Positions 1-486 of a stretch of DNA of 486 nucleotides are shown here, one piece after another. Position numbers and translations under genes: made by a program. Below the pieces are notes generated by a model that saw only the letters and a list, made by a program, of their open reading frames with translations, searched no databases and had not been told where the DNA came from. This DNA is from Escherichia coli. GTDB taxonomy: Bacteria > Pseudomonadota > Gammaproteobacteria > Enterobacterales > Enterobacteriaceae. Location of the stretch: NCBI RefSeq assembly GCF_003334405.1, contig NZ_QOWM01000064.1; one strand, given 5' to 3'. The first letter of the stretch is position 1, and each line of letters opens with the position of its first letter.

Positions 1-486
1 GAAGCTGCGCAGCGTTTCCCGGTGCAGGCGGTCGCGGGTGTACTCCACCAGCGGTGTGTCGCCGAGTTTCATGCCTGACAGCCAGCCGCTGCCGTAGGTC
101 AGCCATTCCACGGCGGGCAGGCTGTCCGGTATACAGCGGTTCGCCAGTCCCTGTGCGTTGTACGCATGTCTGGTCTCATGCTGCCAGAGCAGTGCTTCCG
201 TCTGCGGATGATGCACCGTCAGGTGTTCACTGGCGAGGCGGCCTTTACTGTCATAACCATAGTGCACCGTCACCCGGTGCCCTTCGCTGATATGGCTGAT
301 GTCTGTCAGCCAGCCGCGTTCGTCATACTGCCACCGCTCTGCGGTTTCGCCATTCACGGTGCGGTGCGTGAGGCGGTCTGCTTCGTCATAGTGCCAGTGG
401 GTGACCAGCCCCTCATCCTCGCTGCGGATAAGTTTGCCGGTCAGGTCGTGGTGATAACGCTGTGTGCGGCCGTCAAAGCCGGTTTC
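1..486 (-). CDS. Rhs-family YD-repeat protein, internal fragment of the conserved core (partial at both ends)
   Basis: Minus-strand frame with codons ending at + position 486 is open across the whole window (162 codons, no stop; translated by hand). The product has periodic YD-type motifs (RYHHDLTGKLI, WHYDEADRLT, WQYDERGWLT, HYGYDSKGRLAS, VEYTRDRL) spaced about 21-24 residues apart. GC is about 62% (301/486 by hand count). The paralog (rhsA/B/C/D-like) cannot be assigned from 486 bp, so no symbol is given. Confidence 0.88.
25..48 (-). repeat. YD-like repeat unit, degenerate (protein-level): VEYTRDRL
   Basis: Minus-strand codons gtg gag tac acc cgc gac cgc ctg. Tyr and Asp are separated by two residues, followed by RL, and the unit is in phase with the repeat periodicity. 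Confidence 0.45.
45..52 (-). other. Chi octamer (5'-GCTGGTGG-3') on the minus strand
   Basis: Plus strand 45..52 reads CCACCAGC, the exact reverse complement of GCTGGTGG. The match is exact; whether it functions as a RecBCD hotspot depends on the host, which is unknown. Confidence 0.5.
235..264 (-). repeat. YD repeat unit, canonical (protein-level): HYGYDSKGRL, matching YxYDxxGRL
   Basis: Minus-strand codons cac tat ggt tat gac agt aaa ggc cgc ctc. The plus-strand GTCATA at 250..255 is the reverse complement of TAT GAC (Tyr-Asp). Confidence 0.8.
304..333 (-). repeat. YD repeat unit (protein-level): WQYDERGWLT
   Basis: Minus-strand codons tgg cag tat gac gaa cgc ggc tgg ctg aca. Plus-strand GTCATA at 322..327 encodes the YD. 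Confidence 0.7.
367..396 (-). repeat. YD repeat unit, diverged (protein-level): WHYDEADRLT
   Basis: Minus-strand codons tgg cac tat gac gaa gca gac cgc ctc acg. Plus-strand GTCATA at 385..390 encodes the YD. Asp replaces the consensus Gly before RL. Confidence 0.65.
427..459 (-). repeat. YD-like repeat unit, degenerate (protein-level): RYHHDLTGKLI
   Basis: Minus-strand codons cgt tat cac cac gac ctg acc ggc aaa ctt atc. Matches a Y-x-x-D-x-x-G-x-L-I pattern, in phase with the ~22-residue periodicity of the other units. Confidence 0.5.

Follow-up and report, generated by a model that had tools for sequence, protein, structure and literature searches.

A 486-nt stretch of Escherichia coli DNA, which we refer to as the window, raises two questions: what does it encode, and what does its G+C content, well above that of the host, tell us about its origin? 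The first-pass annotation had answered both together, describing a GC content near 62% as consistent with a horizontally acquired Rhs core. An exact count gave 153 G, 148 C, 117 T and 68 A, or 301 G+C among the 486 nucleotides (61.93%), the same figure that the annotation had obtained by hand (301/486, about 62%). Per 100-nt window, the GC content lies between 57 and 67% across the stretch, with no internal drop or step.

The identification of the window as part of an Rhs core relies on homology, not on composition. Frame 0 of the minus strand is the sole frame without stop codons, the other minus-strand frames holding 7 and 8 stops and plus-strand frame 0 holding one. The 162-residue translation contains the YD-type motifs RYHHDLTGKL, HWHYDEADRL, RWQYDERGWL and VHYGYDSKGRL, and it matches the NCBIfam model NF041261 RHS_core ("RHS element core protein") over positions 675 to 836 of 1261 (E = 3.6e-102, 343 bits); this match applies to the covered region only, the whole-protein cut-off of 2000 bits being beyond the reach of a 162-residue fragment. 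The fragment also scores 22.4 bits against TIGR01643 YD_repeat_2x, whose cut-off is 15.8, and two repeat units were located with Pfam PF05593 RHS_repeat (Table 1). The repeat period of 21 codons can be seen in the DNA as well: a 15-nt direct repeat, TTCGTCATA(C/G)TGCCA, which is the antisense of W-x-Y-D-E, occurs at 319-333 and 382-396, with a spacing of 63 nt. The tandem YD (RHS) repeats expected of an Rhs core protein are thus found with PF05593, with TIGR01643 and in the 21-codon spacing of the DNA.

Table 1. Features of the 486-nt window (positions are counted from the first letter of the window)
Feature	Position	Strand	Description
Clade I rhs core ORF, internal fragment, rhsC-type allele	1..486	minus	162 aa, stop-free, runs off both ends; equals K-12 RhsC residues 667-828
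YD (RHS) repeat unit including HWHYDEADRL	343..447	minus	Residues 14-48; Pfam PF05593 RHS_repeat, i-E = 2.8e-5
Second YD (RHS) repeat unit, RWQYDERGWL ... VHYGYDSKGRL	223..327	minus	Residues 54-88; PF05593, i-E = 0.0013
Two codons holding all differences from K-12 rhsC	193..198	minus	GAAGCA (Glu-Ala, gene sense) versus AATGAA (Asn-Glu) in K-12

The window aligns with nt 1999-2484 of K-12 rhsC (codons 667 to 828 of 1397) with 3 mismatches. The product of this gene, RhsC (WP_000015200.1), belongs to clade I of Jackson et al. (2009); it is identical to the window at 483 of 486 nucleotides and 160 of 162 residues, and is alike in frame and GC content. Taken together, it is almost certain that the window is the antisense of an internal part of a clade I rhs gene, that this gene belongs to E. 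coli or to an organism very closely related to it, for instance Shigella, that the window has its closest counterpart in rhsC, and that 61.9% G+C is normal for such cores.

Sequences of this kind are abundant in the species. Of 5426 complete E. coli genomes, 3881 contain megablast matches to the window; these amount to 11,208 places, with up to 5 per genome and a median of 3. The best identity was 99.4%, and none of the 5426 genomes contained a 100% identical copy. The matched features were annotated as rhsC or RHS element core protein, and near-identical cores accordingly lie in multiple copies at several chromosomal loci. Of the 11,208 places, all are chromosomal but one, which lies on a plasmid. 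We also observed that rhsB of E. coli E2865 (4101-8323 of its locus sequence) is annotated as frameshifted; a near-identical core is therefore no guarantee of an intact gene.

The differences from K-12 rhsC are confined to window positions 194, 196 and 198, the window being identical to this gene elsewhere, and they change two adjacent residues, Asn-Glu in K-12 RhsC and Glu-Ala in the window. We aligned the alleles of K-12 rhsA, rhsB and rhsC, E2863 rhsC, E2865 rhsB and E. albertii. The GAAGCA allele of the window proved to be common to K-12 rhsA and rhsB, E2863 rhsC and E2865 rhsB, with E. albertii one base off. A conversion patch imported into the window at 194-198 had been considered, and the alignment reversed this interpretation: the window carries the common allele, and that of K-12 rhsC is the odd one out. 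The sequences suggest that AATGAA arose in the K-12 rhsC lineage through a very short conversion or a multi-nucleotide change. A 40-mer across the variant codons was not found in the GTDB species representatives, nor was a 124-mer (window positions 159-282) found in metagenome contigs. With no exact copy in the complete E. coli genomes either, the window would represent an E. coli-type allele of a strain that these collections do not include, probably Shigella or an E. coli known as a draft genome.

K-12 RhsA and RhsB belong to the same core family and show 94.5% nucleotide identity over the window; their tips and downstream genes differ. Their 31 differences over the window are clustered at gene-sense columns ~217-280. 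A block of about 20 differences at window positions ~207-270 separates rhsA, rhsB, E. albertii and a copy from an Oscillospiraceae metagenome-assembled genome (MAG) from the rhsC-type copies and the window, and the cores of K-12 rhsA, rhsB and rhsC are 96.7-98.9% identical in pairwise comparisons. This block-wise mosaic among rhs copies may reflect exchange between copies, of which such a pattern is typical.

Other features were not evident in the window. The window gave no match to Rfam at E <= 1, sites resembling promoters or terminators were likewise absent, and the ORFs of both its strands gave no defence-system match with PADLOC. Features on the plus strand were considered and rejected: a 78-aa ORF at 54-290 and two other short ORFs are without a PADLOC match and run opposite to a gene with strong support. 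The 78-aa ORF begins with GTG, is antisense to the rhs frame and has no family match. That plus-strand frame 0 is nearly open, with one stop in 486 nt, is expected opposite a GC-rich gene.

Where does the window lie within the architecture of an rhs gene? In Enterobacteriaceae the motif PxxxxDPxGL marks the start of the variable C-terminal toxin (PMC3150448), and we divided the four intact rhs genes of K-12 accordingly, into a core up to and including this motif and a tip after it. The cores of rhsA, rhsB, rhsC and rhsD have 61.6, 61.7, 61.3 and 63.3% GC, respectively, versus 40.3, 36.8, 41.6 and 36.7% in the tips and 33.7, 33.3, 31.2 and 30.6% in the downstream genes yibA, yhhH, ybfB and ybbC. 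GC3 is 71.5-75.4% in the cores and 18-31% in the tips. In 150-nt bins, rhsC stays at 55-69% GC to nt 3600 and then falls to 45%, 47% and 43%. Its junction motif, PISNIDPLGL, corresponds to residues 1238-1247 and ends at nt 3741, so that the counterpart of the window ends 1257 nt (419 codons, about 1.26 kb) 5' of the end of the motif. As the gene runs from right to left in the window, the junction lies to the left of window position 1. The K-12 rhsC flanks are at 52.4% GC (pxpB to ybgA), 50.2% (ybfA) and 56.3% (kdp operon).

These data agree with the first-pass annotation in two respects. The assignment of the window to the conserved core and not to the variable tip is borne out by the RHS_core match, the Pfam RHS_repeat units and the 99.4% identity to K-12 rhsC nt 1999-2484. 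The general picture that it drew, of GC-rich cores with AT-rich tips and immunity genes, corresponds to the GC-rich core, AT-rich tip and AT-rich downstream gene found at K-12 rhsA to rhsD, the tip contrast being one measured in these orthologous loci. The contrast between core and tip is also present in Serratia marcescens, at 67.7% versus 46.4% GC (PMC2935791), and has been known since the 1990s; PMC2935791 cites Wang et al. 1998 for it.

The region downstream of K-12 rhsC (locus sequence 5217-9934) contains an orphan rhs core fragment with 55% GC and the small AT-rich ybfC with 36.7%, and beyond ybfC there are three ISAs1-family transposase pseudogenes with 38.8% GC. The orphan core fragment, ybfC and the ISAs1-family pseudogenes look like displaced-tip and H-repeat debris.

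The solved structures closest to the fragment are those of Rhs effectors of type VI secretion systems (T6SS): Pseudomonas aeruginosa Tse5 (8cp6; E = 1.2e-20, chain residues 577-731), Acinetobacter baumannii Tse15 (8uy4), Salmonella bongori Rhs (8qja) and Pseudomonas protegens RhsA (7q97). The YD-repeat shells of these four proteins align over nearly the whole fragment, with E values from 1e-20 to 3e-7. The proteins are distant in sequence and have other N-terminal domains and other toxins. The search of solved structures gave none for a clade I Rhs protein of E. coli. In these Rhs effectors, the YD repeats form a closed shell of beta sheet, the cocoon, with the C-terminal toxin in its interior, where an aspartyl autoprotease, also C-terminal, releases it by cleavage; a PAAR domain attaches the protein to the VgrG spike (PMC8765631). 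The TcB/TcC components of Tc toxins and the metazoan teneurins are described as having the same YD/RHS-repeat cocoon fold (PMC8765631). Unlike T6SS Rhs proteins, Tc toxins deliver via the TcA injector, and teneurins are eukaryotic cell-surface scaffolds.

By analogy with these proteins, the YD repeats of the window would form a mid-section of the wall of a beta-sheet cocoon around a C-terminal toxin. Release of the toxin would be brought about by an aspartyl autoprotease at PxxxxDPxGL, a motif that is found in the K-12 orthologue some 1.26 kb closer to the 3' end. The whole protein may ride the type VI secretion spike via an N-terminal PAAR-like domain, and a small AT-rich downstream gene would protect the producer. 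The window covers core sequence alone; the N-terminal PAAR-like region, the junction motif, the tip and the immunity gene all lie outside it. K-12, the bearer of the nearest copy, is not known to have a T6SS. Strain W is the only one with a T6SS among the four safe E. coli strains (PMC3032704).

How unusual is 62% GC in E. coli? As background we took six K-12 regions outside the rhs loci, 300 kb in all, with 51.7% GC. Windows of 486 nt in this background have a mean of 51.7% and a standard deviation of 4.65, placing the studied window at z = 2.2. Its GC content is reached by 73 of the 5946 background windows (1.2%), and all 73 are in the phn operon (NC_000913.3 ~4,314,600-4,321,000), whose best 3.7-kb stretch, at 62.1% GC, rivals an rhs core. 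The other five regions contain no 486-nt window at or above 61.9%, and over 3.7 kb they peak at 54.8-57.1%. A GC content of 62% is thus shared with a native locus, the phn operon, and does not serve to diagnose an Rhs core; when measured over less than 500 nt, it does not by itself justify calling an Rhs core, or a gene of foreign origin, in E. coli. The unusual feature is the excess sustained over the whole core of ~3.7 kb, not the value of a single window: the rhsC core sustains 61.3%, versus 51.7 +/- 2.9% in background windows of 3.7 kb.

A contrast between the window and its host does exist, as the first-pass annotation had stated in setting about 62% against roughly 50-52%. The K-12 genome has 50.78% GC (PMC3032704, Table 1), our 300-kb sample 51.7% and the rhsC flanks 50-56%. 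The annotation had added that a host genome of about 62% GC would remove the contrast; this is not the case, the sequence being an E. coli allele and K-12 having 50.78% GC. Near-identical fragments in assemblies labelled Streptomyces griseoloalbus and Frankia tisae might be taken to indicate an origin of the window in a genome with an average of about 62%. These are contigs of only 544 and 433 nt, one of them at a coverage of 0.8, and their 95-96% amino acid identity to the E. coli protein suggests contamination; moreover, the 3 bases at which the window differs from K-12 rhsC match other E. coli copies. We regard such a source as extremely improbable. E. coli-like rhs fragments were seen on small contigs of four assemblies in all, S. 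griseoloalbus (544 nt), F. tisae (433 nt), an Oscillospiraceae MAG (2726 nt) and a Lentisphaerae MAG (3462 nt), with 94-96% amino acid identity, or 79% for the Lentisphaerae MAG. The fragments in assemblies of unrelated phyla most likely represent contamination or mis-binning, not real presence.

We next consider whether the excess belongs to the protein or to the DNA. In the coding frame (minus-strand frame 0), GC1, GC2 and GC3 of the window are 66.7, 45.1 and 74.1%; the corresponding values for host ORFs of at least 300 aa are 61.3, 41.0 and 57.0%, with 53.1% overall. That GC1 and GC2 exceed the means of the host ORFs is what would be expected if the high GC content were a mere by-product of the amino acids of YD repeats, with their abundance of Gly, Arg and Ala. 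However, the same 162-residue protein written in host codon usage would have 55.2% GC and a GC3 of 56.2%, versus the 61.9% and 74.1% observed. Of the excess of ~9 points over host ORFs, ~2 are thus accounted for by amino acid content and ~7, about three quarters, by synonymous choice. This recoding rules out amino acid composition as a sufficient cause and makes the by-product explanation very improbable. As the excess is found mainly at synonymous sites, it is a property of the DNA and not of the amino acid content. The codons favored in the window are CGG, GGC/GGG, GTG, GAC and AGC, and T-ending codons are avoided. The tip shows the opposite bias, with 41.6% GC observed versus 50.3% expected with host codon usage.

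The excess is also found in other enterobacterial genera. In a scan of one genome per species, close relatives were found in E. albertii, Citrobacter amalonaticus, C. youngae, Buttiauxella brennerae, Lelliottia and Superficieibacter. Their cores have 58-65% GC, with upstream flanks at 52-57% and tips at 36-44%. In the orthologues with 70-86% amino acid identity (E. albertii, Citrobacter and Buttiauxella), 26-44% of the four-fold sites differ from the window, corresponding to Jukes-Cantor distances of 0.31-0.65. The GC content at four-fold sites is nevertheless 73-82% in these orthologues, compared with 86-88% in the window. The fact that diverged orthologues keep the excess indicates that it is old and persistent, and not the mark of a fresh import. 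The host flanks of the relatives span just 52-57% GC, a range that both a fixed value of ~62% and a constant offset above the host would fit.

What, then, has produced the excess? According to the classical explanation, also adopted in the first-pass annotation, it is what is left of a horizontal acquisition from a GC-richer donor, still ameliorating toward E. coli. The mostly synonymous nature of the excess (GC3 of 74% versus 56% expected), its abrupt end at the junction, beyond which the tip is biased the other way, and the patchy presence of the sequence (3881 of 5426 genomes) are all in favor of this explanation. The direction of change would also fit slow amelioration: among polarised substitutions in the E. 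coli rhsA, rhsB and rhsC cores, 84 were GC-to-AT and 48 AT-to-GC, implying an equilibrium of ~49% GC, close to the host. These counts take as ancestral the state on which rhsD and E. albertii agree, a parsimony criterion that is biased in GC-rich sequence, and they are confined to rhs cores. However, a surplus of GC-to-AT changes would equally follow from mutation, which in bacteria is generally biased toward AT, and from this parsimony bias. The 73-82% GC at four-fold sites of the diverged orthologues further means that any import was old or repeated. In addition, the rhs family is ancient in Enterobacteriaceae, and its clade I is older than E. coli and has expanded in this species, with occasional lateral transfer (Jackson et al., PMC2935791). 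We consider leftover acquisition a possible explanation and adopt it tentatively.

An alternative is that the excess is intrinsic and actively maintained, by GC-biased gene conversion among copies or by selection on codons or mRNA, an explanation that is silent on foreign origin. Its persistence in diverged orthologues across several genera would be accounted for in this way. The Serratia genome has about 59% GC, a value that the S. marcescens core given above would exceed. The mosaic structure of the copies, with blocks shared by rhsA, rhsB and E. albertii without rhsC and the 5-nt patch at window positions 194-198, fits exchange between paralogues, for which a median of 3 copies per genome is available. 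On the other hand, the polarised changes within E. coli amount to a net loss of GC, and the sampled hosts cover a narrow range (52-57% GC) over which an offset and a fixed value are not separable. We consider active maintenance rather unlikely, though a serious alternative. Its more specific form, in which GC-biased gene conversion among near-identical copies, and not a foreign origin preserved as a fossil, keeps up the GC content of Rhs cores, seems improbable.

With regard to the composition, the most likely origin, put forward with reserve, would be a GC-richer lineage whose entry into, or rise within, Enterobacteriaceae preceded the existence of E. coli. The original description of the window stands as far as the Rhs core and the GC value are concerned. 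Acquisition does not follow from GC content alone, as diverged orthologues keep the excess and the family is ancient (PMC2935791); "horizontally acquired" is a plausible but unproven gloss.

Our results place the window in an E. coli rhs gene of textbook type, and the conclusions drawn from it are all established knowledge and in themselves matter little. They do suggest that the statement that GC-rich means recently imported needs more cautious wording, because synonymous choice accounts for about three quarters of the excess and diverged orthologues still show it. Should the improbable case of biased conversion among copies turn out to be true, the classical argument for rhs elements, that they are GC-rich and therefore imported, would be wrong.
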